From Pirellulales bacterium (GTDB lineage: Bacteria; Planctomycetota; Planctomycetia; Pirellulales; UBA1268): a DNA stretch of 64,000 bases. The DNA lies in assembly GCA_028066355.1 (NCBI GenBank), contig JALCBP010000003.1, forward strand, positions 1,751 through 65,750, given 5' to 3'. The position numbers and the translations under genes were made by a program. Positions 31,583 through 62,117 of the stretch are shown here, one piece after another (position 1 is the first letter of the stretch; every line of letters starts with the position of its first letter). The notes beneath the pieces are model-generated. The model saw only the letters and a list, made by a program, of their open reading frames with translations, was not told the DNA's origin and searched no databases.

Positions 31583-32659
31583 TTAATACCAGACACCCAA
31601 CCGCACGAGAAATGTGTCACTGGGATGATAGTCAGCTGTATCAGTCACATAATATTCTACGAGTCGCCCAGTTACCCAGCCTGTTTCCAGACGCCAACTG
31701 ATCCCAAGATCTGCAGGTCTCCGCTCCCATCCGGCCAGCAAACGATAATCGTGATAGACAACAATGTCGTCAGCACCAGAGTCGCGACGCACAGCCCACT
31801 GATTTCCCCCAAATTCACCAGCAAGATAAACCCACTGAGCAGCTTTTGAAGTTTCTTTGATTCGCCAGGCGAGACGAGGTCGTGGAAAGATCAACTCAAA
31901 GCGTCGATCATCACTCGGAGTCCAGAGAAGTCCGCCAGCGGGCAGAAGATTGACATCATAACGATCAAGGTAGATGACCCCAGCAACAACACGGAGATCT
32001 TCGTGAGCCTCCCAGGCACCAAATCCGTGGCCTGTGACCCGGAATGCCTGTGCACTGTCATTTACAAAGTCGCTGTACCAGCCTGGTGCAACTGCAAGAT
32101 CGACACCCAAACGTTCACCAATTTTTCGCATCCAACGGGCCTGAATCCATGACTCATAAAGTGTCGCGGGAAGACCAGGATCCATCGGGCCACTTGCCTC
32201 ATCTATAAAGGTCCATCCAAAACCGGGAGTGACGAGGAGTGGTGAATCAACGGTCGGTGCAGGCATACCAAGGGTCAGGCTCGTTTCGAGTGTAGCAAGC
32301 CCAAGCCCGTTGCTACCCAGACGAGGTAATTCGGTAGTCGTGAGAATGAGTTGCTGGAGAGCCCCAGGCTTTGCACCAGGAGGAAGTTTTCGACCAGGTG
32401 GATTATTTTCTTGGCGTGGTTGGCCTGGCGGAGCGACATCGTCTGGTAGCAGTGGCTCAGTTAGGTCTTGAGGATCACCGAGTGCAGCCAAGCGAATCTT
32501 CTCAAAGAAATTGGTGTCAATCGACTCCACTGGCGGTAGCGGGATAATCGCATTGTCGGAAGCAGACACATCAAGTGTCTGAAGGGCAAGGCATAGCAAG
32601 AGAATGAGCTGCGATATGTTTCTACGCTTTTGAGAAGCCATATTCTTCTCCGCGAGCAT
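31583..32659 (-). CDS. Putative outer-membrane beta-barrel protein (paralog of 32659-34158)
   Basis: It has a signal peptide (LILLLCLALQTLDVSA) and a C-terminal aromatic residue (..RLGVWY). It shares blocks with the upstream gene: TPGFG, GVIYLDR...LPA.G..WTP, FP.PR..WR, W.Y.AGE.GG. The family was not identified. Confidence 0.5.
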   Translation of the reverse strand: MLAEKNMASQKRRNISQLILLLCLALQTLDVSASDNAIIPLPPVESIDTNFFEKIRLAALGDPQDLTEPLLPDDVAPPGQPRQENNPPGRKLPPGAKPGALQQLILTTTELPRLGSNGLGLATLETSLTLGMPAPTVDSPLLVTPGFGWTFIDEASGPMDPGLPATLYESWIQARWMRKIGERLGVDLAVAPGWYSDFVNDSAQAFRVTGHGFGAWEAHEDLRVVAGVIYLDRYDVNLLPAGGLLWTPSDDRRFELIFPRPRLAWRIKETSKAAQWVYLAGEFGGNQWAVRRDSGADDIVVYHDYRLLAGWERRPADLGISWRLETGWVTGRLVEYYVTDTADYHPSDTFLVRLGVWY

Positions 32660-34158
32660 TAGTAGGCAAGGCCTAACCGAAACATAATGGTGCTTGGCAG
32701 ATCAACAATTTGCTGTATGCCGTTGGCAGGATCTCCGACGCCATTGACGTAAAAAAGTTGGCGGTAGAAAGCATATCCGATTTCAAAGTTGCCGGAGAAG
32801 CCAGTTGTGGCGAGAGGCAACCACTCTGTCCCAAGAGAAATTCGTATATCGTTGTAGTCAAATCTCTGGATAAACCCTTCTCCGCCGTTGTAGTTAACAT
32901 TTCGAAATGTCCAAGCACCACCACCATATTCGCCAGCAACATAGCCCCACCAAGCATGTCGCCGTGTCTGTCCGAATCGCCACATAGCTCGCGGCGCTGG
33001 AAAGAACACGTCATACCGCGATGTTGCGTTTGGTGTCCATGTAAATCCAACAGCGGGTAATATCTTTACCTGGTTTCGATCGAGGTAGATGACACCCAGT
33101 TTGCCCTGAAATGTTGGAGTCATATTTAACGTACCGATTGCTCGTCCCATGACGCGCCAGCTGTCCATGACGAAAACATTCCAGTTTGTGTAGAAGCCAA
33201 CACGGATTCCCAACTCAGCGCCAAATAGTGGTGTGAACTGAGGATTCCACGCAGTATCCAAAAAGTTATCGTAGGTATTTCCTGGAAGTTGGGGTACTAG
33301 AGGTCGTGGCAGTAAAAGTGGATTGAATGCACTCTGAGGACCACCCCACAACTGTAAACCAAAGCCTGGAGTAATCAGCAGAGGAGCCTGATTAATATTC
33401 GCTGGTGAATTCATGAAAAACGGGAGTGCAAACGTTGCCGTTGTATCGAGTTCATTTACAGCGACAGAATTTCCCCGACCAGTTCCTAGAACATAGGTCC
33501 AACTTCCCCGTACTCCCTGATATGCTCGCAAGGATTGTTGGTATGTTTGCTGAAACCATTGACTCTGTTGCGTTGGCGGTTGGGGATAACCAACAGGCAA
33601 TGGTTGCGAAGGATTACTTGGGACGATAGGTGGTGGTGCTGTCGAATAGCCCGGGTAACCAGGCTGTCCATTTACAGCTGACGTGGCCCATGTTGGTGGC
33701 GGATTTGTTCCCGGGTTGGTTGCAGGTACAGGATAGATTTGGCTCGCCTGTGGCCCGTACGGATCCCACGCGGGGGGTGGAGGGGAGAGTGGATAGCCAT
33801 ACGGTGATGCCTGTGCAATCCTGTCGAGAGAGGAAGCAGCAGGTGGAGGCAGCTGTACAGTCTGCGCAGCAATGTTGTTATCTGCCGTGAATGCAGATAT
33901 TCCTATGATCAAGACAATGAGTGAAAAAGTCTGTACTCGCACGCGGTCGACGACCCACGCAGTGGGAGGTTGGCTGTGGTCATCCGGATAGCCCCGAATG
34001 CTGACCCCAACTCTCCGTGGGGGGTACCGCGCAAGAGCTATACGGGTCAACATCGCCGCCCTTGCATCACGTTTACTGCTCTCTTCTATGGTCTTTAGTT
34101 CACGTAGACTTCCCTCTTTGACAGACTTTTTGTCTGATAAAGCTGGGTGATAGACCAT
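32659..34158 (-). CDS. Putative outer-membrane beta-barrel protein with Pro/Gln-rich linker (paralog of 31583-32659)
   Basis: A hydrophobic leader (FSLIVLIIGISAFTA) is followed by a ~110-aa Pro-rich low-complexity region. A C-terminal domain homologous to the downstream gene follows, ending ..FRLGLAY. The start is uncertain, with an alternative ATG at 34053. The stop overlaps the next start as TAATG. Confidence 0.5.
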   Translation of the reverse strand: MVYHPALSDKKSVKEGSLRELKTIEESSKRDARAAMLTRIALARYPPRRVGVSIRGYPDDHSQPPTAWVVDRVRVQTFSLIVLIIGISAFTADNNIAAQTVQLPPPAASSLDRIAQASPYGYPLSPPPPAWDPYGPQASQIYPVPATNPGTNPPPTWATSAVNGQPGYPGYSTAPPPIVPSNPSQPLPVGYPQPPTQQSQWFQQTYQQSLRAYQGVRGSWTYVLGTGRGNSVAVNELDTTATFALPFFMNSPANINQAPLLITPGFGLQLWGGPQSAFNPLLLPRPLVPQLPGNTYDNFLDTAWNPQFTPLFGAELGIRVGFYTNWNVFVMDSWRVMGRAIGTLNMTPTFQGKLGVIYLDRNQVKILPAVGFTWTPNATSRYDVFFPAPRAMWRFGQTRRHAWWGYVAGEYGGGAWTFRNVNYNGGEGFIQRFDYNDIRISLGTEWLPLATTGFSGNFEIGYAFYRQLFYVNGVGDPANGIQQIVDLPSTIMFRLGLAY

Positions 34159-40317: not shown

Positions 40318-43300
40318 ATGGATGATGTCCAGAATGATCAAAAAGATTCTCTACGATCCGTCCTGTTGCGACGGTGGCGGTGGTTTACACGTTTAATCAA
40401 GCTGGTTGTTATCTGTTTTGTCATATACCACTCGCCAAGATTAACACGACTTAAGGCTGTTCGAGATTGGCCGCTAGAAAACGTATTTGACGGCCTTGCA
40501 GGCCAAATCTCATCGGGTTCAGCAACGTGGGATTGGTTTGGTCCCATTGTTTATCAAGACCTTCTTATCAAGACATCAGATGGAATGCCATTGCTCGCTG
40601 TTGATCGCTTAGAGGTGAACAGAAACCCTCTTCGTTTGGTCTTGCAACCACACGACCTTGGCTGCATACGGCTTGAAGGAGCGAGGCTCTCAACAGCTGT
40701 GTGGGACGGTGGAAGCACCATTGAAACAGTGCTCGATCCGTGGATCGAAAAAGTAAGTCAAAGTAATCAGCAAGAAAGTGCTCAAAGCCCTACTGATAAC
40801 GCAGATACTGAAATAGTATTTGGTGATACATCCAATCACATTACAGGAACCGTTGAAATCGTTGATGCAACAATCGAGTTGACAGATTTACGGCATGGAG
40901 ATGTATGGTTGCTCGATGATATTGCCGCAGTTATTCCATTCCCCCAGTCTGCAGCGGGTGGTGAGCCTTCTTTTTTCCCATCGGGCACAATCTGTAGTGG
41001 ATCTATTCGGTACGCCGAAGAGCCTCAGTTGGAAATACGTAAAGCTTCTTCACAGGTTGAAAATAGGCTAACGACAGCCAGTATTATCAATCGAGCAAAT
41101 TCAATTCTTGCTCAGCCTGGTGGTTGGTCAGTGACAGTATCCGAGTCGGAGGCAGATAAAAGAAAGTCTTCATTGGTGGTAGGGACGACCCGCTGCCCGG
41201 CCGGTATTTCACGGGTAGTAGCAAATCGATTTGGCTGGTCGCATCTCATCCAAGGCATCGTTGATATTCGCGCTGATGTACTTCTTGACCAATCGTTTCA
41301 AATGAATTGGTCGACCCCACCATCTCATAAAGAGGCACAGGTTGTTATCAAGGGCAACGTTATCGGTCGGGATTTGTCAATTGTTGAAAATAAGACAGAT
41401 CAGAAGGAACTGGTAATTGAAAAAGTTGATATGCCTTTCGAGGCTGCTTTATTTCCGGATAAATATGTTATTAAGAGGTTCCAAGCAGAGACAGATGTCG
41501 GTTACTTGGAAGCTTCAGGAACTATTACGGCGACACCTGGCCATAGATATAAAAGTGACATCGTATTTCCTGGTTGGCAGGTACTGGAAGTATTTCAAGG
41601 TGATGACTTTGAGGCCCATGCATCTATTGACATTGCTTCGCTACTAAGTGCTTTCCCACGTATTCGTATGCTACGTCCAGACGTGCAAATGACAGGAGGA
41701 GCAGTCACTGTTGATATTAAGAGCGAGGCACAAACTGCCGGTCGTCAAATTCAGTTTAGATCTGAACTCAAGAACGTATCAGCGATCCAAGGTGAAAAGA
41801 AAATAGAATGGCACGCTCCATGGTCCGCTTGGATTTCCGCCCGGCAACAACTCGATGGGCAACTTTATGTAGAGGAATCCGGGTTCGCATCAAACTTTGC
41901 TGATATTTCGATGAACGGGATGTCTGATACAGTCGAAACAACGTGGCGGATTGACCTAGGCAGTATGTTTCAAAGTGTGAGTGAGCTACTCGATTTCCAA
42001 AAAGGGATGAAAAAGCAACATCTCTCAGGAATATCACGAGGACAATGTCGTGTTGATCGCTCATCGGAGATGGGTCCAGCAAAAATATCAACATCATTAA
42101 GTATCGAAGAATTGAAATGGTTGATCGGTGAGCAAGCAGTCTGGGAAGAGCAGCTCATTTCCATTGATCTCGATACAGGCTGGATTGAAACACCAGCCGA
42201 CATCGTACTGAAGAATGTGGATTTCAAGTTGGGGTCAGGGGGTGATTCCTTTGTTGTATCGCTTTCAGAAGAGTATCGTTTTTCTTGTGATCTCAGTAAG
42301 ACACCGTGGGTAAATATGATCGCACAAGCGAAGAAAGAGCCAGTCGCTTTCGACTGTCAGATGTCAGGAAATTTGATGACATGGCGACAGCGAATTCTTG
42401 GTTTTGGTGTTACTGGGGGTTTTGAAGTACCTTCTTCTCAAACAGAAATAGCGGGTCGTTTTGAAAGCAGCTGGAACCTCCGGTATATCGGAGAGCAATT
42501 TCAGATAACAAAGGCTTCAACGCAGATAGAGAACCTCGTTTTTCAAGCGGGTAGGCAACGCATAGAAGAATCGAAGGTGATTCTTGCAGCAGTTGGATCG
42601 GTAGATCCTGGTCGAGGAATCATAAGGCTCTCAAGTGCTGAAATGTTGTCGTCAACGGTATCACTACGAACAGGTGGATTGCAGATAGTCCCGAGAAGTT
42701 CAAAAGATCAACCATTGATCAATACTCTTTTCGATAGCGTGCAGGGTCGGATACAGTGGCAAGTCGATCTTACAAGACTGAATAAATGGCTGGCACAAGA
42801 TCTGACACTAGACGCAGCAGGTCGTCTTTGGGGAACAGCGGATCTCCTTGAAACACCTACGGGTCTCAATCTTTTGATGACAATAACAGGTAGCCAATTA
42901 GCTGTTTCTCATTCAAACGTCCCAAACGGACAAGCTGAAGGTCTACAAGCACATCTGGTTTGGAAAGAACCGCAGGTGAACGGACTGCTTGACATAACAC
43001 GACCGGTTGCGAATGAAGTATTAACGAACCAAATAGAAATAAATCAATTTAAAATTGAATCCTCAACCGTGAGTGTTGTAGCGACTGGGTCAATCGACGA
43101 CATAACAGGGCGACAGCACGTAGAACTTGGTGGCACAATATTAATGAATTGGGAGCAGTTAAGCCGACTTCTTTCACCGTCTTCAGCTCAGATGTTGAAA
43201 GTGACAGGCGGCGGCCCACAACCGTTTTCCATAAGAGGTTCTGTTGAATCTTCTATGACAATTGATGATTCAGTGATGGTACCACTTCCAGAAAAGTGGA

Positions 43301-44313
43301 AGGCACCTTCGCCACAGCGTTCTTTATCAAAACAACAACTCATCGCTTTACCGTCGAAACAATCCCACAGTGCTGACCAAGGTATCGAGAACTGGTTTCC
43401 GCGTATAACAGCCGAAACAACACTTTCTTGGCAAGGTGGACAAATTGCCGGTTTTCCCCTTGGGCCTGGCACGATGCCACTGCGACTGCTCGAGGGACAA
43501 CTGGCTTTTGGACCATTTGAAATACCAGTGTCAGGAGGAAAAATTCGTGGAACACCATGGATTCAGCTTTTTCCTCCACCTGGTCAACTTATTGTACCAC
43601 CAGGAAGATTCATTGAACGTATTGCGTTAACGCCGCCTCTTTGTGATCGGTGGTTATCCTGGCTGTCTCCAATTCTGAGGCGAGCAACTGAAGCAAACGG
43701 CTTTCTGACCGTTGATACATCCGGAGGTCAGTTGCCCTTGAACGATCCACTCAATGGTCGATTTGATGGACAGTTAATGCTGGAGCAGTTTTCTGTTACA
43801 CCCGGCGATATGGCAGGACCGCTCATTAAGCTTTTAGCAAAACTTCAAAGTGTTGTTGATCCACGTTTTGCATTTGGTGATCAGGTCGTTTTCTTGCGGG
43901 CACGACCAGATCCAGTACGGGTGCAGATAGCAGATGGTCGGGTTTACCATGACAATCTTATCCTCGACATGGGTCAATTGACTGTACGCAGTCAGGGCAG
44001 TATGGGGCATGACGGTTCATTGTCGATGCAGCTCGAAGTTGCTTTTCGAGGAGATTTAGCAGGAGCTACTCCAGTAGTTGCACAACTTCTACGCACTCCT
44101 TTTGTGATCCCACTTCGGGGAACGGTTCGTAATCCTCAATTCGATGCTACTGCGATCGATACGATCTTAAAGCGAATCATGCAAAACACAGCAGATGCAG
44201 TATTACGCGATGGCATTGGGAGAGGTCTCGAAGCGATCTTTGGTAATCCTCAACAGCCAGAACAAAAAGTACCACCAGTTACGCAGCCACTAACTTTTCC
44301 AGATGGTTTGTGA
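40318..44313 (+). CDS. Giant (1331 aa) N-terminally anchored envelope protein, AsmA/TamB-like candidate
   Basis: It has a single N-terminal TM segment (FTRLIKLVVICFVIYHS). The remainder is long with no recognizable enzymatic motifs. The C-terminal region (..FVIPLRGTVRNPQFD..) is reminiscent of AsmA-like C-termini. The assignment is by architecture only. Confidence 0.35.
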   Translation: MDDVQNDQKDSLRSVLLRRWRWFTRLIKLVVICFVIYHSPRLTRLKAVRDWPLENVFDGLAGQISSGSATWDWFGPIVYQDLLIKTSDGMPLLAVDRLEVNRNPLRLVLQPHDLGCIRLEGARLSTAVWDGGSTIETVLDPWIEKVSQSNQQESAQSPTDNADTEIVFGDTSNHITGTVEIVDATIELTDLRHGDVWLLDDIAAVIPFPQSAAGGEPSFFPSGTICSGSIRYAEEPQLEIRKASSQVENRLTTASIINRANSILAQPGGWSVTVSESEADKRKSSLVVGTTRCPAGISRVVANRFGWSHLIQGIVDIRADVLLDQSFQMNWSTPPSHKEAQVVIKGNVIGRDLSIVENKTDQKELVIEKVDMPFEAALFPDKYVIKRFQAETDVGYLEASGTITATPGHRYKSDIVFPGWQVLEVFQGDDFEAHASIDIASLLSAFPRIRMLRPDVQMTGGAVTVDIKSEAQTAGRQIQFRSELKNVSAIQGEKKIEWHAPWSAWISARQQLDGQLYVEESGFASNFADISMNGMSDTVETTWRIDLGSMFQSVSELLDFQKGMKKQHLSGISRGQCRVDRSSEMGPAKISTSLSIEELKWLIGEQAVWEEQLISIDLDTGWIETPADIVLKNVDFKLGSGGDSFVVSLSEEYRFSCDLSKTPWVNMIAQAKKEPVAFDCQMSGNLMTWRQRILGFGVTGGFEVPSSQTEIAGRFESSWNLRYIGEQFQITKASTQIENLVFQAGRQRIEESKVILAAVGSVDPGRGIIRLSSAEMLSSTVSLRTGGLQIVPRSSKDQPLINTLFDSVQGRIQWQVDLTRLNKWLAQDLTLDAAGRLWGTADLLETPTGLNLLMTITGSQLAVSHSNVPNGQAEGLQAHLVWKEPQVNGLLDITRPVANEVLTNQIEINQFKIESSTVSVVATGSIDDITGRQHVELGGTILMNWEQLSRLLSPSSAQMLKVTGGGPQPFSIRGSVESSMTIDDSVMVPLPEKWKAPSPQRSLSKQQLIALPSKQSHSADQGIENWFPRITAETTLSWQGGQIAGFPLGPGTMPLRLLEGQLAFGPFEIPVSGGKIRGTPWIQLFPPPGQLIVPPGRFIERIALTPPLCDRWLSWLSPILRRATEANGFLTVDTSGGQLPLNDPLNGRFDGQLMLEQFSVTPGDMAGPLIKLLAKLQSVVDPRFAFGDQVVFLRARPDPVRVQIADGRVYHDNLILDMGQLTVRSQGSMGHDGSLSMQLEVAFRGDLAGATPVVAQLLRTPFVIPLRGTVRNPQFDATAIDTILKRIMQNTADAVLRDGIGRGLEAIFGNPQQPEQKVPPVTQPLTFPDGL

Positions 44314-51259: not shown

Positions 51260-53593
51260 GTGAACAGTTGGTTCCAAAAAATCGGCATGCTTTTCAGCTG
51301 TATGGCTATTGCAGCGAGTGGATGTGCGCCACGGCAGCCATTTTATTTTTTCGAGGATGGTGATCTTTCTCATTATGTAGGCGCTGTTCAAAAAATAGAA
51401 TACCCAGATACATGCCAAGATCCACTTGATGAGGCGGCTGAAACAGTTGAGCCTCTTACACTCTCAAATGCGAATTTTGAAGAAATTTGGGAAGTGACGC
51501 TTGAGGATGCGATTCGTACTGCTCTCGAAAATGGCAAAGTTCTTCGAAACTTAGGTGGCAGGTTCAGTAGTTTTGGAGGGCCCAGACCGCAGACTGGTGA
51601 GCCACCAGTATCACTTTTGACGAATCCAGATCTTACTCCGACTGTCTATGATCCAGCTCTTGTCGAAACGGATCCATTTCGTGGTGTTGAGAGTGCCCTC
51701 GCACAATTTGATGTCCAGCTTTCGAGTTCACTGACATGGGAACGGCAGAATAGGCCGCAGAATGTTGGTGGGCCAGGAACGATTATCTTCCAACAACACT
51801 TGTTGGGTGATACAGGAAACTGGACAACGGGTTTACAAAAACGAACGGCAACTGGTGCAACCTTTGGGCTCGCGAATGAAACCTTATACGACAATAACAA
51901 TTCACCAATTCGACAGACGGGTGTCCCATCGACGTGGACAACTAATTACGACTTTTCATTCCAACAACCGCTACTTCAAGGTGCAGGCCTCACGTATAAC
52001 CGAATCGCTGGTCCAGATGCCTTTGAGAATCTGTATGGCAGACCAAATTTCCGCGGTGTTCTCCTTGCACGAGTGAGTGCAGATATTTCACTGGCTGATT
52101 TTGAAATTGGTGTTCGAAACTTGATTAGTGATACCGAGCAAGCCTATTGGGAACTTTACTTCGCCTTCCGTGACCTCGAAGCTCGTAAGGTCGGTCGCGA
52201 TAGTGCACTGGAGGCATGGCGTCGAGTGCATGCTCTCTATGTTGAACAATCACGCGGTGGTGAAGCAGATAAAGAAGCACAGGCTCGAGAACAATATTTC
52301 TTTTTTCGTAGTGAAGTTGAACAGGCGCTCAACTCAGTGTTCAGTGCTGAGAATAGGCTGCGATACATGATGGGGATCTCATCTTCTGATGGACGACTAA
52401 TACGTCCTGCCGATGAACCAACAACAGCACGAGTTACATTCGATTGGCAACAATCTCTCGTAGAAGCACTTTCTCGATCTGCCGAACTCCGTCGACAAAA
52501 ATGGAGAATCAAGCAGCGAGAGCTCGAGTTGACAGCGGCGAAGAATCTTATTCTGCCGCGACTTGATCTCGTGGGAAGATGGCGTTTCTTAGGGATGGGT
52601 AATGACTTACTCGGTGGGAATAATTCATATGGTGCCGATGGAGCAGATCCACTTGATGGAACAAATGCATATGCAACCCTCTTCCACGGCGAATTTCAAG
52701 AATGGCAGGCGGGTGCTCAGTTCTTAATGCCACTCGGTTTTCGTCGTGAACTGGCGACGGTACGGCATCATCAACTGCAGTTAGCGAAGGCTCGTGCTCA
52801 ACTTCAAGATGAAGAGCTTGAAGTCTCGCATGCACTCGTCGAAGCAATACGAAATATTGATACAAACTTTGCCCTTGCACAGACGAACTTTAATCGACGT
52901 GTGGCTGCCGAGCGACAGGTTGAAGCAGTACAAGCCGCTTATGATGCCGGTACGACAACTTTTGATCAGTTACTTGATGCCCAGCGACGAAGAGCTCAGG
53001 CAGAAAGTGCCTATTTCAGATCGCTTATTGATTACAACCGATCGATCGCACAGTTCCATTTTCGTAAGGGATCGTTACTCGAATATAACGGTGTTTTTCT
53101 CTCAGAAGGACCATGGCCGGGTAAGGCGTATTTTGATGCCCATAGAAGAGCACGTCAGCGAGATGCCAGTCTCTATTTAGACTATGGTCATTCTCGTCCC
53201 GGAGTTTTCAGTCGTGGCCCGATAACTCAACAATTTGATGCCGTTGGTGCTGCAGCCCGAGCGCAGCAGATGCCACCACGAGATCCAGCGACTCGTGAAT
53301 TACCGGCAAAGTTGCCTCGTGATTTCAATACCGAAGAACTCCCAACACCAATGCCAAACGAAACACCGAGTTTCCCAGCGGCAGCACAAGGTTTTCCAGG
53401 TGAAGAGATAAAACTTTCGTCATTTCAGCCAACAAAGAAATCAGCCATCGATTCAGTTTCAACCGCAGATGAAACAAAGCAGCTGCAGGAAAGGAACGCA
53501 GATATTGTTACAACTGGGTGGCAAGAGCCAGTGACTCCAGCAGCGAAGGTAGTAATCAACCCGGACTCTGCTGCTAAGACACAGCTACAGTAG
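51260..53593 (+). CDS. TolC-family outer membrane efflux protein, lipoprotein-type, with long Pro-rich C-terminal extension
   Basis: It has a lipobox-like IAASGC and the OEP N-terminal block LTLEDAIRTALENGKVL. Two OEP repeats with coiled-coil regions follow. The last ~170 aa are low-complexity and Pro-rich. The start is either the GTG at 51260 or the ATG at 51287. Confidence 0.8.
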   Translation: MNSWFQKIGMLFSCMAIAASGCAPRQPFYFFEDGDLSHYVGAVQKIEYPDTCQDPLDEAAETVEPLTLSNANFEEIWEVTLEDAIRTALENGKVLRNLGGRFSSFGGPRPQTGEPPVSLLTNPDLTPTVYDPALVETDPFRGVESALAQFDVQLSSSLTWERQNRPQNVGGPGTIIFQQHLLGDTGNWTTGLQKRTATGATFGLANETLYDNNNSPIRQTGVPSTWTTNYDFSFQQPLLQGAGLTYNRIAGPDAFENLYGRPNFRGVLLARVSADISLADFEIGVRNLISDTEQAYWELYFAFRDLEARKVGRDSALEAWRRVHALYVEQSRGGEADKEAQAREQYFFFRSEVEQALNSVFSAENRLRYMMGISSSDGRLIRPADEPTTARVTFDWQQSLVEALSRSAELRRQKWRIKQRELELTAAKNLILPRLDLVGRWRFLGMGNDLLGGNNSYGADGADPLDGTNAYATLFHGEFQEWQAGAQFLMPLGFRRELATVRHHQLQLAKARAQLQDEELEVSHALVEAIRNIDTNFALAQTNFNRRVAAERQVEAVQAAYDAGTTTFDQLLDAQRRRAQAESAYFRSLIDYNRSIAQFHFRKGSLLEYNGVFLSEGPWPGKAYFDAHRRARQRDASLYLDYGHSRPGVFSRGPITQQFDAVGAAARAQQMPPRDPATRELPAKLPRDFNTEELPTPMPNETPSFPAAAQGFPGEEIKLSSFQPTKKSAIDSVSTADETKQLQERNADIVTTGWQEPVTPAAKVVINPDSAAKTQLQ

Positions 53594-53660: not shown

Positions 53661-54884
53661 TTAAGGAGCAGCAGCAGGAAATGGTATTGCTGCCGCTTGT
53701 CGAGCCTTATTGAATACCTCAATATCTTTCTCCCTGAGTTGAGTAAGCAGGGAGGCACTTTTCTCTGATGGATACGCCAAGAGATACCCAATAATTGCCG
53801 GCCGAATGAGTGGATCTTCGGTACCAAGAGTATCCCACATTGCAACAATCTGGTTACAAAATGCCCAATCTTGATATCGTGATAAGTCAACAATGACCTC
53901 GCGCGTAAGGTGTGGCACGGGGAAGAGTTTACGAGTGATGAAGGTAACTTCTGTTCGGGGGATCGTGTCAGATGGATATTCCCAGCAAAACCGCAATGCT
54001 TGTAGAAGATGTCGCTGATTAACAGGGCTTGCCTCATTCTCGAAGAGATTCTCACGTTCTAAAACCGGCAGTGCTTGTTTACCTAACGCGATAAAGAGTC
54101 CAGCCATAATGCCATCAAGGCCAGCCTGAAAATCACTTGATTGGTCTTTGGTAATCATGCGAACAAGCACGTTCGCGCATGCTGATTGAGACTCTTTCGA
54201 TGACTGACGAGCTAGTACACCAGCCACTATCCCATAGAACCCACGCCTTTGCTGTTGAATGGATAGATCATTCAGATGATCGACAACGTGCTCTGGAGAA
54301 AAAGCATGAGCTGAGTCTCGAACTTCCTGAAATGGAGCGAGGGCAAATTCGGCATAGGCATCTTTTGAAATAGCAGGATTGGGATGATCCAGCCATTGGG
54401 CAAACCACTCAAGGCGGTTTTTATCGTTAAAAATCTTCTGCGTTAATGGAGGTATTTGGAGAGCGTAGCCAAGAAACATTTCATCAGCAGCATGCGCAGT
54501 CCACCCAGTAACAGGAAGATCAAAAAGTAAAGCAGTCCCCGAGAAAGTAGTTTCAACAGTAGCTTTTACCAAGGGTATAGCAGACTCAATGGCAACTACT
54601 TTTCTACCTGAAGGCGTCGGAATTATTCTCGAAAGAAGTGAAAAAGACTGGTGTTGTTGGCCTTGTATATTTGCAACTGCATCTGTTACCGAGTCGCCAA
54701 TGGCAATGTCACTTGATCGTTCGATACTATAAGAGAGTGGTGTTTCAACAGGGCCACAGAATGGGCATGCTGGGCTTGTCGAAGCGAGAGACGAGAGCAA
54801 GCAAAGAGTTAAACATGCCCTACGCGATACAGTGTCTAAATGCATCCACATGATCGATAATTGGAGATACTTCTGGCCGATCAT
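53661..54884 (-). CDS. Secreted hypothetical protein with N-terminal Cys-Pro-Phe-Cys motif (paralog of 56125-57639)
   Basis: The signal peptide is followed immediately by ACPFCGP. Blocks shared with the 504-aa paralog are DAYAEFALAP/DAYDEFAIAP, QQRRGFY/SNRRRLY, GLDG/GLDA, ALRF and DLSRYQDW/DLARWQDW. Its ATGA start overlaps the stop of the upstream gene. Confidence 0.6.
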   Translation of the reverse strand: MIGQKYLQLSIMWMHLDTVSRRACLTLCLLSSLASTSPACPFCGPVETPLSYSIERSSDIAIGDSVTDAVANIQGQQHQSFSLLSRIIPTPSGRKVVAIESAIPLVKATVETTFSGTALLFDLPVTGWTAHAADEMFLGYALQIPPLTQKIFNDKNRLEWFAQWLDHPNPAISKDAYAEFALAPFQEVRDSAHAFSPEHVVDHLNDLSIQQQRRGFYGIVAGVLARQSSKESQSACANVLVRMITKDQSSDFQAGLDGIMAGLFIALGKQALPVLERENLFENEASPVNQRHLLQALRFCWEYPSDTIPRTEVTFITRKLFPVPHLTREVIVDLSRYQDWAFCNQIVAMWDTLGTEDPLIRPAIIGYLLAYPSEKSASLLTQLREKDIEVFNKARQAAAIPFPAAAP

Positions 54885-55459
54885 CGAACAGATTCTCCAG
54901 TGAGCGAATAGACAGCGAGGTGACTCCCATCCGGACCTTTTAATTCCTTGATACCAAAAGTCCCGGTAACAGCTACAGGACGAATAGAAAAATTAGCTGT
55001 CCTGCCCGGAAGCATTTTGACAACGATACAATCGTATAACGCTGCGCCGGGGCCAAAACAGCATTCCATATTGTCCCGAACCAAGACAAACTGGGTTAGG
55101 CCAGCCTGTTGAAAGCTCGGAAGAATATATCCTCGAATCCGAATCTCATGTCCCACTAAAGAGGTGACTCGCTCGGGCAAGAGTTTTTGGGAAAAAGGTT
55201 CGTCCTCCGCCATCTCAAAGATAATATCGTCAAAGGATATCTCACGAATACCATTTTGGTTGAGTCTCTGTTTCGGCTGTGACTGACGCTCGTCAGTACT
55301 CGGTGCACCGTTTTTATCAAAAGCGTTTTCATCAGAAGTTAGAGGGGCGTTTTTGTCTCGACCACAGCCTGAAAAAAGTGAAGCAGATAGAAAACAAACA
55401 AAGACTTTAGCGAGGAAACGCTTCTTCAAGATGGTAAAGGACCCCCCCCTCGATACCAT
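54881..55459 (-). CDS. DUF3299-like lipoprotein (CCFG motif)
   Basis: It has the lipobox LFSGC, and its C-terminal domain is IRGYILPSFQQAGLTQFVLVRDNMECCFGPG. The start is uncertain. The ATG at 55459 overlaps the upstream gene by 53 nt, and the ORF-track start at 55675 is implausible. The family name is recalled from memory. Confidence 0.5.
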   Translation of the reverse strand: MVSRGGSFTILKKRFLAKVFVCFLSASLFSGCGRDKNAPLTSDENAFDKNGAPSTDERQSQPKQRLNQNGIREISFDDIIFEMAEDEPFSQKLLPERVTSLVGHEIRIRGYILPSFQQAGLTQFVLVRDNMECCFGPGAALYDCIVVKMLPGRTANFSIRPVAVTGTFGIKELKGPDGSHLAVYSLTGESVR

Positions 55460-56099
55460 CTTGGCCAAAGGTTGGGCGAACGGTGAATGTGCCAGCGATT
55501 TTTTTCTGACGAGAGCTAAATGACATGCTCTTTTCATCTTGAAGATGGACAAGAACACGATCAGTAATTTTTGGATTACCTCCAAAGCAGCAATCTCCTT
55601 GATCTCGTACAAGTAAAAATTGACGAATCCCAAATTGTTTTTTCCCCGGATACATATAACCCTTAATGAGTACATTATGTCCGTCTATAGCGCGAGCGGA
55701 ATCAGGTATTGAAGCCGCGGGTGAGCCCTCAGCAGGTTGCAAAATACCGTAATGAACTCTCTCGAATCCTTCAGGCAATTCAGCAGCATATACCCATGAT
55801 AGATATATAGTCCCACCTATTAGGCAAACCAATGAAAAAGTCGTAGCTGTTTTAGCCAGTCGTTTACCTGTGAAAATATCAGGACGTTTGATAATGTCCC
55901 GTAAGGCAACCAGACCGAGACAAAAACCAACTGCAGGTACAGCTAGTAGCCACCAGTCAATAAACGCCAGTGGTGACAGAAATGCGAGTGTTGCAGCAGC
56001 AATTGATGTCCCAGCTAAAGCCTTATAGGCATGATCTTCGTTACTTTCAACACTACCTTGAGTAGCTTTTAGAGGAGTATCAAAAAGTCCTTTTTTCAT
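55407..56099 (-). CDS. Membrane protein with C-terminal DUF3299-like domain (CCFG motif)
   Basis: About 3 predicted TM helices are followed by IKGYMYPGKKQFGIRQFLLVRDQGDCCFGGN, which is paralogous to the downstream gene. The start is uncertain: the ORF track gives 56192, and in-frame ATGs lie at 56138 and 56099. Only 56099 avoids overlap with the upstream gene. Confidence 0.5.
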   Translation of the reverse strand: MKKGLFDTPLKATQGSVESNEDHAYKALAGTSIAAATLAFLSPLAFIDWWLLAVPAVGFCLGLVALRDIIKRPDIFTGKRLAKTATTFSLVCLIGGTIYLSWVYAAELPEGFERVHYGILQPAEGSPAASIPDSARAIDGHNVLIKGYMYPGKKQFGIRQFLLVRDQGDCCFGGNPKITDRVLVHLQDEKSMSFSSRQKKIAGTFTVRPTFGQDGIEGGVLYHLEEAFPR

Positions 56100-56124
56100 A
56101 ATTGCTGTACTGCAACTGGATTTG

Positions 56125-57639
56125 CTAACCAGCAGCATCCCGTTTTCCTGACTGAAGAAAATAGCGAGATAGAAAGGCTGCAACAACAACAAGAACAGCC
56201 CAGACGAACCATTTTAGCATTCGCAAGGATTCTGTAGATGATCTGTTCTCAGAGTATGGAATGGGACTTTTTCTGGTCTGAGAATCTTCTGCCACCGGTG
56301 GTGAGCCCGTACTCACAACCATAGAGCGGTCTGACGTGACATCATCTGCAACGACATCAGCAACACGTACGGGCGTAGTAGTTGACTGCTCTGTTGAAGG
56401 AGCCTCTTCAGCCGAAGGGGTTCCTTCAGCACTTGCTGCGAGGCCCGCTAAACCAGCTAACGTGGCTGCTCTGCGAACAGCATCGGGATCAATCTCACGA
56501 AGTTTTACCAAAGCACTCGCGGCCTCAGGAAGCGGACACGCTTTCATATAGTTCACTATGGGTTCACGCACAAAGATGTTCTCTGGTGTGGCGTCCACAT
56601 AAATGGTCGTCAACTTTTCTATCACAGACCAATCCTGCCAGCGAGCGAGATCAGCAATGACCAGATCTGCAAGTTTTGGTTCATTAAGCAATAACCGCAA
56701 GGATTCAAGAACACGGTCACGTGGAATGTTTTCTGACTCTTCGCCAAGGAAACGAAGTGCCATTACCGCGGCATATGTTTCTGTGAATGGAATATCCCGA
56801 GAGCTACGATCAAGAAAAAGTTTATCAATGAGATCGAGACCCGCTGGCCCAACGAGCACGACATAGCAGGCAATCAACGCATCCAATCCACTGCGCAGAT
56901 CAGATGAATCATCGCCAAGTTCTTCACCAAGAAGAATTTTCTCTATTTCAGATGCGTCAGCGGGAGTTCCGCATATACCCAACATCGTGGCGTACAAACG
57001 ACGTCTGTTCGAGGGAATCTTTGGCGTCTTTATCCATTGCAGTAGTGCAGTCGGATCCATTCTATTTTCAAGGCCACGGACATCATCATATGGTGCGATT
57101 GCAAATTCGTCATATGCGTCTCGAGTAAGAACATCGTCTTCGTCTTCGAGGTATTGTTGAAAAAAGGCAAGACGATCTGGGCCAGATTCAGGGAGCTCAT
57201 CAAGTGTCTTAAGATATGTAACAGCACGTTCATTAATGGCAATTGGGTTCGACCATATAAATTCGGGCGGCTCAATTCCCATGATGAGATATAAATCCCC
57301 AGGAGTGGTTACCTCGAGCATAATTGCATCAATGAGAGTTTCCGCATCAAGCATATTCGTTGAACGCAATAGGTCTTCTCCTTTGAGGACATCAACTACT
57401 TCGAATTTAGCCCGTGGTAATGGACCCTCAGCATTAGGTCCCAAAGATGATGCAGGAGGTGGCTCAACAAGGCGGGCGATGACGGCAGCATCGCTTTGAT
57501 TAATTTCTTGAGAGAATGTTAAGGAGACTGCGGAACAAAAAGGACAGGCAAGAGATTGTGCGAATGGCACAATTAACAAGGAGCTGATGGCAAGCATCAG
57601 AACAGCAATTCGAGAATGATAGAAGGCAGGCATTCGCAT
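56125..57639 (-). CDS. Secreted/anchored hypothetical protein with N-terminal Cys-Pro-Phe-Cys motif and C-terminal TM helix
   Basis: The signal peptide ends ..AQSLA and is followed by CPFCSAV (codons at ~57531-57551). The body looks like alpha-helical repeats. A Ser/Thr/Ala/Pro linker and a terminal TM segment (WFVWAVLVVVAAFL) follow. It is a paralog of 53661-54884. Confidence 0.6.
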   Translation of the reverse strand: MRMPAFYHSRIAVLMLAISSLLIVPFAQSLACPFCSAVSLTFSQEINQSDAAVIARLVEPPPASSLGPNAEGPLPRAKFEVVDVLKGEDLLRSTNMLDAETLIDAIMLEVTTPGDLYLIMGIEPPEFIWSNPIAINERAVTYLKTLDELPESGPDRLAFFQQYLEDEDDVLTRDAYDEFAIAPYDDVRGLENRMDPTALLQWIKTPKIPSNRRRLYATMLGICGTPADASEIEKILLGEELGDDSSDLRSGLDALIACYVVLVGPAGLDLIDKLFLDRSSRDIPFTETYAAVMALRFLGEESENIPRDRVLESLRLLLNEPKLADLVIADLARWQDWSVIEKLTTIYVDATPENIFVREPIVNYMKACPLPEAASALVKLREIDPDAVRRAATLAGLAGLAASAEGTPSAEEAPSTEQSTTTPVRVADVVADDVTSDRSMVVSTGSPPVAEDSQTRKSPIPYSENRSSTESLRMLKWFVWAVLVVVAAFLSRYFLQSGKRDAAG

Positions 57640-57714
57640 ACCCCTAATATATAGGACACATTGTGATACCGAATCAAGGTTTGGGAGAAGGCTTGCTTTT
57701 CAACGTTTTTTACT

Positions 57715-59034
57715 TTAATTCAGCCATCGTGCGACGTCCGTGCGATACGCAGCCACAGCTGGTAATAATGCTGCAAGGATCGCAAGTACGATTAAGAAAG
57801 GTACAAGGAGCAGTTCTGCCGTCGTATGCGATAAAAATCCAGCTGTAACACCTGCATTTGTTGCTATCCATGGCCCAATGAGTCCAACTGTGCCGTGCCC
57901 AAGGAGCAATCCGATGACTCCTCCTCCAACAGCAAGGAGAATGGCTTCAATAAGTACTGTTGCTAGAACAACGCTGCGACGAGCCCCCAAGGCTCTCATG
58001 ATTGCCACGTCCCGGCTTCGTTCAAGAGATGAACCAACCATACTCACCAGGATGCCAATTGCGGAAACAATCACGACAAGAGTTGTGACTAACAAAAGTA
58101 ATAACTCAAGCGGTGTAACAAAAAGATCAAGGAGTACACGAATCTCAGCAATCGGAAGAGCAGCCTGAGCTTCACGACCCTCATTGATCGCATTACGAAG
58201 GCCCATCGCAGTGAGTTCTGCCGGGAGACCAGGAAGAGCCGCTGTCTCAAGCAAAATAGCAGTGACCTCACGTTGGTTAAATGGAAGTAGCCCATCACCT
58301 GGTGAGTTATTCTCCTCGGGTATGGTTTGATCAGCGACCACACTCGAATCAATCGGCTTTGCATGCCCCTCTTGAAGATAAAAGCCTTCCATATTGACGA
58401 AAACACCGCGGTCAATAGGAGTGTCAGTTCTGGAGAGAATTCCCGTGATTTCGAATGGATCATGAACCTTACCATCATCAGCACCATGTGTCGGTGCGAT
58501 CGTATCACCAACACGCAGGTTTAGCGTACGTGCAACTTGGCTTCCTAGAACAGCACTGTATAAATCATCATCGTGAAAGTTTTCCCCGGAAGAAAACTCA
58601 AAAGGCTCGCCATTGCCACGAGTAAGTCGATCGAAATAAGCAGAATTTGTGCCAACTACTCGGTGGCCACGAAAGTAATCGCCCATACAGATGGGAACAG
58701 CAGTCTGCGTACTTGCTGCCCATGTTCCATCTTTTCCATCAGGACGTTCATGGGCAGGCAAAAATTCTGCATATGTAGCCCACGAAATATTCTCGATTGG
58801 CTTGCTGATGAAATAAACACTATTGAGCACAAGTTGTAACGGGCTGCCTTTGGCACCAACGATCATGTTGTAACCAAGGCCCGCACCTGACTCGAAGGCT
58901 TGCTTTACAACACCACCCGTGATCAAGGTTGCTACAACAAGTGCGACACCAAGAGCCATTGATAATGCAGTGAGGCCACTTGGAAGTGCCCGCTGTTTAA
59001 TGTTTCTCCATGCAATTCCGAGCAAACTCATCAA
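57715..59034 (-). CDS. FtsX-family ABC transporter permease (MacB/LolC-type, large periplasmic loop)
   Basis: 439 aa. TM1 (LTALSMALGVALVVATL) is followed by a ~250-aa extracytoplasmic region containing IVGAKGSPLQLVLNSVYF. Three C-terminal TM helices carry the FtsX block (RDVAIMRALGARR). Confidence 0.85.
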   Translation of the reverse strand: MMSLLGIAWRNIKQRALPSGLTALSMALGVALVVATLITGGVVKQAFESGAGLGYNMIVGAKGSPLQLVLNSVYFISKPIENISWATYAEFLPAHERPDGKDGTWAASTQTAVPICMGDYFRGHRVVGTNSAYFDRLTRGNGEPFEFSSGENFHDDDLYSAVLGSQVARTLNLRVGDTIAPTHGADDGKVHDPFEITGILSRTDTPIDRGVFVNMEGFYLQEGHAKPIDSSVVADQTIPEENNSPGDGLLPFNQREVTAILLETAALPGLPAELTAMGLRNAINEGREAQAALPIAEIRVLLDLFVTPLELLLLLVTTLVVIVSAIGILVSMVGSSLERSRDVAIMRALGARRSVVLATVLIEAILLAVGGGVIGLLLGHGTVGLIGPWIATNAGVTAGFLSHTTAELLLVPFLIVLAILAALLPAVAAYRTDVARWLN

Positions 59035-59795
59035 TGTACTCCACTTGTTGTTGGGTGGATTGCCGCAGCCCGATTAAAATCTTCCAAACGATGGCGTACT
59101 GGAAATTGCTCTGCTACTTCTGGAGCATGTGTGACAACTAAAAGTGCGACGTCTTCTTCCTTGCATGTATTCTGCAGGAGATCAATAACTTGTTGTTGAT
59201 GGGCAGGGTCAATACTTGCGGTCGGCTCATCGGCAAGAAGAACTCGTGGCCGATTTGCAAGTGCACGGGCAACTGCAACGCGTTGTTGTTGTCCAATACT
59301 CAAAGCTGCTGGCTTGTGATGGAAACGGTCAGCCAGACCAACGGCGTCAAGCAGTGACTCAGCCCGTTCCTTACTTGCTGCTTGTGATCCGAAACTCATT
59401 GCAACGAGTACGTTCTCGAGCGCAGTGAATCCAGGCAGCAGGTTAAATTGTTGAAATACAAGACCGATTCGATCAGCCCGTAGCCGGTCGCGCTGTGGCT
59501 CAGCTAGCTTGACGATATTCAGGCCACCAATCAGGACCTCACCACTATCAGGACGTAAAATACCAGAAACAACATTTAAAAGCGTTGACTTGCCAGAACC
59601 ACTTTGCCCTTCCAGTGCAACAAGTTCACCAGCGGTAATTTGGAAAAATGGTATGTCAAGAATTTGTAGAGGATTACTACCTGGAACAGGAAAAGACTTT
59701 TTCACATCTCGCAGTTCAAGAACGGCTACCTTTTCAGTAGAACTCTGGTTTTTTGTATGTGTTTGTTTCATATGGACAAAGAATCGCTGGAACAT
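59031..59795 (-). CDS. ABC transporter ATP-binding protein (LolD/MacB/FtsE type)
   Basis: It has Walker A GQSGSGKST, the Q-loop FQQFNLLP, signature LSIGQQQR and Walker B LLADEPTASID. It makes an ATGA overlap with the permease. An alternative start lies at 59771. Confidence 0.9.
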   Translation of the reverse strand: MFQRFFVHMKQTHTKNQSSTEKVAVLELRDVKKSFPVPGSNPLQILDIPFFQITAGELVALEGQSGSGKSTLLNVVSGILRPDSGEVLIGGLNIVKLAEPQRDRLRADRIGLVFQQFNLLPGFTALENVLVAMSFGSQAASKERAESLLDAVGLADRFHHKPAALSIGQQQRVAVARALANRPRVLLADEPTASIDPAHQQQVIDLLQNTCKEEDVALLVVTHAPEVAEQFPVRHRLEDFNRAAAIHPTTSGVH

Positions 59796-60069
59796 GACGT
59801 GATGTCAAAAGGAGTTTCTCATGGCGGGCTTTCTGTGGGAAAAACCGATTTTGGACAAATTTCCTGCCAGGTGAAGCTAGCTGACATCCCTGATTTCCAA
59901 GAATTCGACGGCAAATACTTTTGATTGGTGTAGCGACAGGCTAAAACCTGTGGGTGATTGAGATAGAGTTGGTGCGCGTGTATAGTCCTGCCGGAGAAAC
60001 TTTACGGTGGCAGTGCCCGAAGGCACTCTGACAACTGCCGATCTGACGACTCGTTATAGGAGTTTTGCT

Positions 60070-61120: not shown

Positions 61121-61156
61121 CGGCCGGCCTTGCTTTCCAAAAGGCCGGCCGTTTTT
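61121..61156 (+). terminator. Rho-independent terminator after gap (probably bidirectional)
   Basis: CGGCCGGCCTT (61121-61131) pairs with AAGGCCGGCCG (61141-61151) around a 9-nt loop, followed by TTTTT (61152-61156). It also lies immediately 3' of the minus-strand gene ending at 61155. Confidence 0.8.
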
Positions 61157-62117
61157 AGTGGCTGTCTCCAGATGCGGAGTTAAGTTTAGCAAGAGCTTCC
61201 GTTTCAATTGCTGAGCCATCAAACTGAGTCAGCTGAACTGTAATTCGAATAGGAGTAGTCGCTGGTGCCGTAGTTGGCCACGGTAGTATGAAATGAAGAC
61301 CACGGGCTCTTGATGTGCGTCGAAAGTGCTGTTGAGCTTCGGCCGCGGGAATTGTCCATTCTGCAAACTGACGTCCTAGACTGGCCTCTTGGGCTGTTGC
61401 TGTCGGTTCAAATGCAGCCACATAAATATCACCAGCAGTCGTGACAAGGCGTTCATCAGCATCACGTGGCTCAACGACAAGTGTGATTCCCTCTGGGGAG
61501 CCATCACCATCGCTGTCATAACAAACAGTTTTTTCATGATTAATGACTAGATGCGTGAGATCTGCTTGATGGCCAACGCTTTCAGCAAAAGAAAGCTGGC
61601 GAACAGGTCTGGAAGCACCTCGCTCACTCGACTCCTGTGGCAACGGCGGCACGCCCTCTAGGGTCGGAGGTGTCATATCCTCGCTAGGCTTTGGCAGACT
61701 GTTGGAGCTCTTTTTACTACTAGTCCCAGATGGAGGGTCGGTACCAAAAATGGGACCGGTACTTTTCGGGCCATCACTTGTTCCATCAAAGTTTGGCACA
61801 TCAACTTGTGGCGGAACAAGGAGTGGCTGAGCAGGTGTCGGCGAGGGTAGCGTGGTGCGCGAAGGAGAAGAGTCATCAACGATCCCAAGTTGCTTACGAA
61901 GTGATGCGTTCTCTTCTGTCAACGTATCAAGTTCGTAATATTGCGTCTGTAACTTGTCTTGGAGGCAATAAATCTGATCTTCTTGAAGCCGCAGTTCTCG
62001 TTCAAGAAGTTGATGATGAACATCACTCTTACAGCCACAAATCAAAATTATCAGACACACGAAAAATGACACCGGAGAAGGTCCAAGTTTCATCTGTTGA
62101 AATAAAGTTACTTTCAT
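61155..62117 (-). CDS. Hypothetical lipoprotein with coiled-coil and Pro-rich segments
   Basis: It has the lipobox LICGC, then a heptad-like segment (LLERELRLQEDQIYCLQDKLQTQYYELDTLTEENASLRKQL). A Pro/Ser-rich linker and a C-terminal beta-rich domain follow. No family was recognized. Confidence 0.5.
   Translation of the reverse strand: MKVTLFQQMKLGPSPVSFFVCLIILICGCKSDVHHQLLERELRLQEDQIYCLQDKLQTQYYELDTLTEENASLRKQLGIVDDSSPSRTTLPSPTPAQPLLVPPQVDVPNFDGTSDGPKSTGPIFGTDPPSGTSSKKSSNSLPKPSEDMTPPTLEGVPPLPQESSERGASRPVRQLSFAESVGHQADLTHLVINHEKTVCYDSDGDGSPEGITLVVEPRDADERLVTTAGDIYVAAFEPTATAQEASLGRQFAEWTIPAAEAQQHFRRTSRARGLHFILPWPTTAPATTPIRITVQLTQFDGSAIETEALAKLNSASGDSH

Follow-up and report, generated by a model that had tools for sequence, protein, structure and literature searches.

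A planctomycete version of the Zrg/PA4063-66-type DUF3299-dependent ABC system with two HEAT/ARM CPFC proteins

The closest described relatives of the locus that we analyze here are the ZrgABCDE system of Vibrio cholerae and V. parahaemolyticus and the PA4063-PA4066 system of Pseudomonas aeruginosa, ATP-binding cassette (ABC) systems in which the nucleotide-binding domain (NBD) and an FtsX/MacB_PCD permease are separate proteins, a DUF3299 OB-fold protein serves as a partner, and no membrane-fusion protein (MFP) is encoded in the operon. The zrgABCDE genes are induced 75- to 205-fold by Zn limitation, with ZrgE being the DUF3299 protein (PMC9817125), and growth under Zn limitation needs ZrgA (PMC9820375). 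PA4063-66 is Zur-regulated, and its loss leads to Co accumulation; PA4064/65 has been modelled as a split MacB, with export of pyochelin or cobalt-pyochelin as the proposed function (PMC11481552). The core system is tied to metal homeostasis by experiment in these relatives. The window analyzed in this study, i.e., the whole of a 64,000-nucleotide stretch of contig JALCBP010000003.1 from a Pirellulales bacterium (GCA_028066355.1; positions 1,751 to 65,750 of the forward strand), contains six closely packed minus-strand open reading frames (ORFs) spanning 53661-59795, which encode the ATPase and the MacB_PCD/FtsX permease of an ABC system, two HEAT/ARM paralogs with a CPFC motif directly behind the signal peptide (HEAT_A and HEAT_B) and two DUF3299 paralogs with a CCFG motif (D3299_TM and D3299_lipo). 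Our analysis identifies this module as a planctomycete version of the Zrg/PA4063-66-type DUF3299-dependent type VII ABC system.

In addition to the features named above, the module shares conserved His and Asp positions in the periplasmic domain of the permease with the Zrg and PA4063-66 systems. It differs from them in having neither a DUF2796 protein (ZrgA/PA4063) nor ZrgD, with two HEAT/ARM CPFC proteins instead; in carrying DUF3299 in two copies, one a fusion with three transmembrane (TM) helices and the other a lipoprotein, with CCFG rather than CIH in the loop; and in its surroundings, a housekeeping context with a TolC neighbour and no adjacent Fur/Zur gene. What is new here is a large, uncharacterised family of CPFC-HEAT partner proteins and the two-tier architecture, whereas systems of the Zrg/PA4063-66 kind are already known. 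The six-gene module had been proposed in an earlier sequence-only reading of this DNA, and all six ORFs were confirmed where that reading had placed them. No functional characterisation of this exact HEAT-CPFC architecture was found in the literature. A search for Planctomycetes together with MacB, FtsX and lipoprotein found nothing relevant, and a search for a structural paper on ZrgBC found none.

ABC engine and DUF3299 proteins

In Pfam, the permease exceeds the gathering score of both MacB_PCD (47.3 bits against 27) and FtsX (49.6 bits against 25.5), and its hydropathy profile places TM1 at residues ~20-45, followed by a loop of ~250 amino acids (aa) between TM1 and TM2 and then by three C-terminal TM helices. 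The ATPase matches ABC_tran with 117 bits and belongs to the LolD/MacB/FtsE clade, confirming the proposed type VII (MacB/FtsX-fold) ABC module. When annotated plasmids were searched by tblastn, the top annotated matches of the permease were permeases from Phaeobacter clusters encoding Fur, DUF2796 (ZrgA), ATPase, permease and DUF3299, i.e., the ZrgA-B-C-E/PA4063-66 arrangement; the same search with D3299_lipo gave no match. Pairwise comparison with the Phaeobacter clusters gave 33% identity over 427 aa for the permease, covering its full length (E=3e-57), 41% identity for the ATPase (E=6e-49) and E=4e-5 for DUF3299. Best matches and pairwise alignments show the ATPase and permease to be a predicted split MacB-fold engine homologous to ZrgB/ZrgC. 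A link between DUF3299, FtsX-type genes and a zinc-responsive cluster had been suggested in the sequence-only reading, and the specific homology of permease, ATPase and DUF3299 to Zrg-type clusters bears it out.

Eight permeases from four phyla were aligned (~31% identity). Only 21 periplasmic positions are invariant in this alignment, and the obvious ligand-type residues among them, D119, H183, H191 and D208, make up most of the polar invariant positions of the periplasmic domain. A His near position 224 is present in all eight permeases, though it forms no aligned invariant column. Among planctomycete orthologs C116 and H224 are each kept in at least 97%, and C116 is specific to Planctomycetes. 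Two distant planctomycete permeases, from the loci that we label L086 and L084, carry long His/Asp-rich low-complexity inserts at the same periplasmic site after H224. The L086 insert (locus positions ~5200-5500) reads HEHAHHDDHDHHGHDHHGHAHH, and the L084 insert (~2600-3100) is an (HDAAD)n repeat running across a gap in the assembly. Both resemble the His-rich loops of ZnuA and ZrgA. As a separate observation, the 652-aa permease of a third distant locus, L085 (2063-4021), has a ~200-aa insert in which the EF-hand-like motif D-x-[DN]-x-[DK]-G occurs several times, matched faintly by the Pfam EF-hand model.

The top NCBIfam matches of the ATPase are LolD, DevA, FtsE, YbbA and MacB, with LolD the best. 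This would fit an envelope-biogenesis or thiol-redox machine, i.e., a Lol/Lpt-like relay that would take a lipoprotein or lipid out of the inner membrane and pass it from paralogs anchored there to paralogs anchored in the outer membrane, or an ABC-coupled disulfide relay with redox-active CPFC and CC motifs, which we nevertheless judge distinctly unlikely. All LolCDE, FtsEX, MacB and DevA equivalogs scored under their cut-offs, and those for LolD, LolCE and FtsEX did so by far: LolD reached 186.8 against 307.75 (TIGR02211), LolC/E 28.4 against 362.45 (TIGR02212) and FtsE 171.4 against 264.85 (TIGR02673), with FtsX models at 21 bits or less. The MacB equivalog, a fused NBD and transmembrane domain, was likewise rejected (NF007826, scores of 164 and 36.4 bits where the cut-off is 966), the two parts being separate genes here. 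Of the structures in the PDB, MacB, YtrF and LolF align to the permease only in its C-terminal FtsX part; the permease is a full-length homolog of the Zrg type and not of LolC/E/F. The module resembles LolCDE-LolA-LolB in having a type VII ABC engine and paralogous periplasmic carriers, one of them a (here putative) outer-membrane lipoprotein, and inner-membrane-tethered and lipoprotein paralogs also recall LptC/LptA. However, the carriers of the module have OB and HEAT-solenoid folds in place of the half-barrel of LolA.

The two CCFG proteins share a C-terminal domain with 34% identity over 99 aa (E=6e-19), in which the GY[IM]xP...QFxLVRD...CCFG pattern of the sequence-only reading is included. 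Its assignment of both proteins to DUF3299 also held. D3299_lipo reaches Pfam DUF3299 (PF11736), although with a borderline score (22.6 against a gathering score of 22), and matches the structure of PA4066 (4hsp) with E=0.0067 in phmmer and E=9e-4 in hmmsearch. A Foldseek search with its AlphaFold2 (AF2) model gave 4hsp as the top match (E=1.5e-6, TM-score 0.56, normalised to target length), followed by other OB folds. D3299_TM scores 14.4 bits, below the gathering score, and is a clear paralog of D3299_lipo; by hydropathy, it consists of three N-terminal TM helices, which are DUF4190-like, followed by a periplasmic OB domain. Together, these results show both CCFG proteins to be DUF3299 OB-fold proteins homologous to ZrgE/PA4066. 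Residues G31 and C32 of D3299_lipo are nearly invariant.

Comparison across phyla demonstrated a variable Cys site in DUF3299, always at the same position of the alignment, in the loop that connects the FxLVR strand to the strand after it. The loop reads E-CCFG in Planctomycetes, TCPFCT in Deinococcota, CQFCPP or CAFCPP in Polymorphobacter and ACIH.PPP in Pseudomonas and Phaeobacter, i.e., the first Cys is always kept and a second ligand-type residue (Cys or His) follows at +1, +2 or +3. The Deinococcota variant comes from "hypothetical" proteins encoded upstream of the Zrg-type ATPase in Deinococcus and Thermus, which are missed by Pfam but are DUF3299-like (hhalign 96.6%, E=6.5e-10) and have a CPFC loop. 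Their ORFs lie at 2743-3201 of locus L089 (Deinococcus radiodurans pMPI) and 3064-3336 of locus L088 (Thermus), and both clusters follow an alkaline phosphatase gene. A 666-aa protein encoded downstream in Deinococcus was considered as a HEAT analog and rejected, having no CxxC and not being helical by sequence. The Polymorphobacter plasmid locus (L090, 33-6141) encodes a Fur-family repressor, MerC, a 146-aa WCVPC protein, the ATPase, the permease and two DUF3299 proteins, so that two DUF3299 copies are not unique to the planctomycete lineage.

None of the Phaeobacter, Polymorphobacter, Deinococcus and Thermus clusters contains an MFP. In the window, none of the four accessory proteins has an HlyD/MFP match at E<=0.1, as the sequence-only reading had anticipated, and there is no HlyD-family match among all ORFs of at least 150 aa. 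That reading had framed the module as an adaptor-less MacAB-TolC-like pump whose duplicated accessory proteins might replace the adaptor. Since Zrg/PA4063-66-type clusters carry no MFP either, its absence is normal for the subfamily, the adaptor-replacement hypothesis is not needed, and we have dropped this framing.

HEAT/ARM CPFC proteins, gene order and the TolC neighbour

HEAT_A and HEAT_B align over 378 columns with 27% identity (E=3e-33), and the motifs DAYxEFAxAP, GLD, ALRF and DLxRxQDW are found in both, which establishes the paralogy that had been claimed for them. HEAT_A has, in addition, a C-terminal TM anchor at residues 469-495 with a positively charged tail, which the sequence-only reading did not mention. 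The AF2 model of HEAT_A (predicted local distance difference test, pLDDT, 83.7) consists of a signal helix, a flexible segment with CPFC, a small beta-rich domain at ~42-135 and a solenoid at 137-403 whose helices have pLDDT values above 90, followed by a disordered linker and the TM helix. Searching with this model, Foldseek returned only generic HEAT/ARM matches, with a probability of ~1.0 and low TM-scores. The Pfam HEAT_2 score is 25.8 bits, below the gathering score of 27.7, and a search of PDB sequences with a profile of the family gave no match. HEAT_A has more than 1546 homologs, all annotated as "hypothetical" and, where a taxon is named, labelled Planctomycetia or Pirellulales. A profile search of 1.84 billion representatives (E<=1e-3) recovered 2,550 clusters at 50% identity, and the signal peptide is followed by CPFC in 116 of the 150 best representatives.

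CPFC is a glutaredoxin-type motif and, together with the WCVPC protein of the Polymorphobacter cluster, which is thioredoxin-like by eye but has no Pfam match, it speaks for the redox form of the envelope machine considered above. A search of the accessory proteins for a thioredoxin fold found none: the N-terminal 103 aa gave no Pfam match even at E<=10, and in the HEAT_A model CPFC lies in a low-confidence, flexible tail before the first helix of the beta-rich domain rather than at the N-terminus of helix 1. The relationship of the HEAT proteins to the DUF2796 protein of Zrg-type clusters was also examined. The HEAT profile and Phaeobacter DUF2796 are unrelated (hhalign probability 0.7%), a DUF2796 search of the module proteins gave no match, and a check of the HEAT and DUF3299 homologs for stretches rich in His was negative. 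The HEAT-CPFC proteins occupy the place of ZrgA (DUF2796) in the cluster.

FtsEX acts through a partner protein bound to its periplasmic domain. In the same manner, or in that of YbbAP-TesA, the module could be a mechanotransducer that regulates a periplasmic partner, with the HEAT and DUF3299 proteins as effectors or scaffolds, and the invariant residues of the HEAT solenoid, a conserved Arg/Asp/Tyr-rich set, would suit the binding of a protein or peptide. Type VII ABC systems are likewise described as often acting via partners on the periplasmic domain (PMC12646458). We regard a mechanotransducer as highly unlikely, as no enzymatic domain was detected in the accessory proteins and the link of the homologous clusters to metal regulons would be left unexplained.

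The motifs and anchors were counted over 86 related loci. CPFC is kept in 76 of 82 HEAT_A and 42 of 46 HEAT_B proteins, and CCFG in 79 of 80 D3299_TM and 72 of 72 D3299_lipo proteins. A C-terminal TM is present in 76 of 82 HEAT_A proteins versus 1 of 46 HEAT_B proteins, and all 80 D3299_TM proteins have TMs upstream of the DUF3299 domain. These features are conserved far beyond chance. They show a paired design, in which each pair comprises one inner-membrane-anchored member (HEAT_A through its C-terminal TM, D3299_TM through its three N-terminal TMs) and one soluble or lipid-anchored member (HEAT_B and D3299_lipo).

Scanning one genome per species identified a relative in 505 genomes, and the family is 53-89% identical across Pirellulales. 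Among the 80 best loci, whose gene order we compared, the order is near-universally ClpP, ClpP, lipoprotein, GAPDH (opposite strand), ATPase, permease, HEAT_A, D3299_TM and D3299_lipo, followed by an insert of 0 or ~3 kb, HEAT_B and lastly the oppositely oriented TolC and ApbE genes. This strong conservation and the housekeeping surroundings also fit the envelope-biogenesis or thiol-redox machine. The neighbourhood survey suggested in the sequence-only reading found the order kept in ~80 Pirellulales genomes, with changes of copy number in distant contigs. In many Pirellulales the ~3 kb between D3299_lipo and HEAT_B consist of unrelated genes (in locus L001, for example, the insert at 12861-15635 holds Bestrophin-like, Peripla_BP_6 and AIM24 genes), and HEAT_B still adjoins the convergent TolC gene. 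Two loci, L039 and L049, have the GAPDH-ATPase-permease block inverted relative to HEAT_A, and the HEAT_A and DUF3299 genes must therefore have their own promoter there. Of the distant loci, L086 has the order ATPase, permease, HEAT, HEAT, D3299_TM, D3299_lipo; L084 has three HEAT paralogs; and L082 has a HEAT gene and two DUF3299 genes with no ABC genes adjacent. Taken together, these loci show that the HEAT/ARM CPFC proteins co-occur with ABC and DUF3299 genes across Planctomycetes. In the closest long contig (L008, 3 Mb), HEAT_A is split into two ORFs at 7926-9489 by a frameshift or an assembly error.

As the sequence-only reading had stated, a TolC gene is convergent with the module, its stop lying 67 bp from that of HEAT_B. 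The module resembles MacAB-TolC in its MacB_PCD and FtsX permease fold, its LolD/MacB-clade ATPase and this nearby TolC-family gene, and differs in having NBD and transmembrane domain in separate genes, no MacA/HlyD adaptor and a convergent TolC, which is therefore not co-transcribed with the module. The permease fold and the TolC neighbour bear on an alternative that we consider unlikely, namely efflux via TolC of an organic molecule (a metallophore, lipid-like compound, peptide or toxin) extracted from the periplasm or the outer leaflet, with the HEAT and DUF3299 proteins as a bridge that stands in for a MacA-type adaptor and the cysteines as structural elements. In over 40 Pirellulales loci TolC stands beside HEAT_B, including loci in which HEAT_B is split from the other five genes; paralog pairs with one inner-membrane-anchored and one lipoprotein member could span the periplasm; and the P. 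aeruginosa homolog has been proposed to export pyochelin or a cobalt complex (PMC11481552). Against efflux, the TolC gene is on the opposite strand and its adjacency is kept only inside the clade of Pirellulales with synteny across the entire region, TolC being missing at the distant loci L082 and L084-L086; with the whole ClpP-ApbE region syntenic, the adjacency is perhaps inherited rather than functional. The absence of any HlyD-family protein from module and window also counts against it, HEAT solenoids and OB folds are unlike the hairpin, lipoyl or barrel domains of adaptors, and efflux would leave the conserved His/Asp site, the His-rich inserts and the Cys-loop variants unexplained. We have rejected TolC as an integral part of the module as unproven, given its strand and its clade-limited adjacency.

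Gene calls, upstream region and neighbouring genes

The coordinates of the module genes, the TolC gene and a promoter-like element are collected in Table 1.

Table 1. Positions of the module genes and adjacent features in the window
Feature	Coordinates	Strand	Remarks
ABC ATPase (ZrgB/PA4064-like NBD)	59031..59795	-	maximal ORF 254 aa; probable start ATG 59771, giving 246 aa
Type VII ABC permease (ZrgC/PA4065-like)	57715..59034	-	MacB_PCD + FtsX; 4 TMs
HEAT_A	56125..57639	-	504 aa; CPFC at residues 32-35; HEAT/ARM solenoid; C-terminal TM
D3299_TM	55407..56099	-	230 aa; 3 N-terminal TMs and DUF3299-type OB domain with CCFG
D3299_lipo	54881..55459	-	lipobox LFSGC; DUF3299 OB domain; loop ECCFG and C144
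HEAT_B	53661..54884	-	407 aa; signal peptide; CPFC at residues 40-43; no C-terminal anchor
Lipoprotein-type TolC/outer-membrane factor	51260..53593	+	OEP 81 bits; lipobox AASGC; relevance uncertain
Promoter-like element TTGACA-N17-GATTCT	59780..59808	-	conserved; putative function, from upstream alignment

Two ATGA overlaps had been claimed between the genes of the module. The one at 54881-54884, between D3299_lipo and HEAT_B, is real, whereas 59031-59034 reads TTGA: the ATPase gene ends with TGA at 59033-59031, and either TTG 59034 or ATG 59031 is the start of the permease gene. Both DUF3299 ORFs were over-extended as originally listed, with likely starts at ATG 56099 for D3299_TM and at ATG 55459 or TTG 55429 for D3299_lipo; the start at TTG 55429 is the one that leads into the lipobox. 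Alignment of the upstream regions indicates that the true ATPase start is probably M9. The promoter-like element ends 8 nt before this codon, forms an invariant block in the alignment and recurs at this position, directly ahead of the ATPase gene, in 16 more closely related loci; its position suggests an ATPase mRNA with a very short leader or none. A sigma-70 scan upstream of the ATPase reported nothing significant, and it did not list this element because the -10 hexamer matches at only 3 of 6 positions. No inverted repeats were found in 59750-60060, and the only Rfam match upstream of the operon was a spurious lncRNA.

The neighbouring TolC homolog is unusually long (777 aa), with a low-complexity C-terminal extension of ~170 residues after the OEP repeats, and is 70-97% identical across related loci. 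On the other side of the module, 61155-62117 on the minus strand encodes a conserved 320-aa putative lipoprotein (LICGC) that has no Pfam match, begins with a coiled coil and is rich in Pro and Ser in its middle; its gene always lies between clpP and gap in related genomes. Elsewhere in the window, large ORFs of 1331, 358 and 499 aa (40318-44313, 31583-34158) have no Pfam match at E<=0.001. A gene for a DnaA C-terminal domain, followed by dnaN and gyrB, occupies 673-6484, and the start of the window is therefore probably beside a replication origin.

Proposed role of the module

We propose that the module is a type VII ABC machine of the Zrg type by which a thiophilic metal, or a chelate of one, is handed from one periplasmic partner to another, a proposal to which we give an even chance of being right. 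The sequence-only reading had taken the recurring Cys pairs as signs of redox or thiophilic-metal chemistry; the metal half is supported by the DUF3299 Cys-loop variants, the permease His/Asp residues and the His-rich inserts. We also count in favor of a metal the genes for Fur and MerC that adjoin the DUF3299-ABC core in Polymorphobacter. In such a machine, ATP hydrolysis would drive mechanotransmission to the periplasmic Asp/His site of the permease, joined by a Cys in Planctomycetes. The CPFC tails and CC loops would act as sites of thiolate ligand exchange, and the metal (of the Zn, Co, Cu or Cd class) or chelate would be passed between an outer tier, formed by the lipoprotein DUF3299 and soluble HEAT_B, and a membrane tier of HEAT_A, D3299_TM and the permease. 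The HEAT-CPFC proteins would thereby substitute for the His-rich chaperone ZrgA/PA4063. As for direction, analogy with the MacB-type mechanism and with the Pseudomonas data would favor removal from the periplasm or membrane outward, possibly via the neighbouring TolC, and analogy with the Vibrio data would favor a role in acquisition.

Two known metal relays offer an analogy. The periplasmic metallochaperone CusF has an OB fold and an aromatic cap, and MerP, through its CxxC motif, hands Hg(II) to a vicinal Cys pair of the membrane-bound MerT. In the module, too, CxxC goes together with CC and a soluble donor with a membrane acceptor, which we offer as analogy and not as homology; the module differs from both CusF/CusCBA and MerP-MerT in that its engine is a type VII ABC system and not an RND (resistance-nodulation-division) pump or a passive MerT. 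In a more specific version of the proposed machine, the CPFC tail and the vicinal-Cys loop of DUF3299 might form an intermolecular thiolate site in an ATP-driven, trans-periplasmic metal relay coupled to the His/Asp residues of the permease, in which D3299_lipo and HEAT_B would be located near the outer membrane and D3299_TM and HEAT_A at the inner membrane. We put this relay forward as a doubtful proposal.

Several points weigh against a metal-handling role. We know of no DUF3299 protein for which metal binding has been shown, and the proposed contact between CPFC and the CC loop is purely hypothetical; the Cys pairs in the periplasm may be no more than disulfides with a structural role. What the model systems themselves do is disputed, between Zn import and Co-pyochelin export, and the structure of PA4066 has been reported to be without evident Zn binding (PMC11481552). 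Near the operon in the window there is no Fur/Zur gene, palindromic operator or riboswitch, and the window permease itself has no His-rich insert. One distant locus, L085, has three HEAT-CPFC paralogs and no adjacent DUF3299 gene. Finally, the operon lies in conserved synteny with housekeeping genes (tig, clpP, gap), a setting that would also suit a constitutive function in the envelope.

With the module recognised as a Zrg/PA4063-66-type system, the puzzle of an adaptor-less ABC pump dissolves. DUF3299-linked type VII ABC systems such as Zrg and PA4063-66 matter for zinc and cobalt homeostasis in pathogens, and the planctomycete variant constitutes a natural experiment on them, with at least 2,500 clusters of CPFC-HEAT proteins in place of ZrgA and a DUF3299 Cys loop that varies by phylum. 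The residue-level hints that we describe, i.e., the Cys loop, the Asp/His site and the His-rich inserts, make the role of DUF3299 systems testable. If the relay that we propose were true, it would be the first ABC-powered periplasmic metallochaperone cascade and would explain the function of DUF3299 in Zrg/PA4063-66 systems. For the Pirellulales, which are abundant marine and freshwater bacteria, the module marks a conserved and probably important envelope system.

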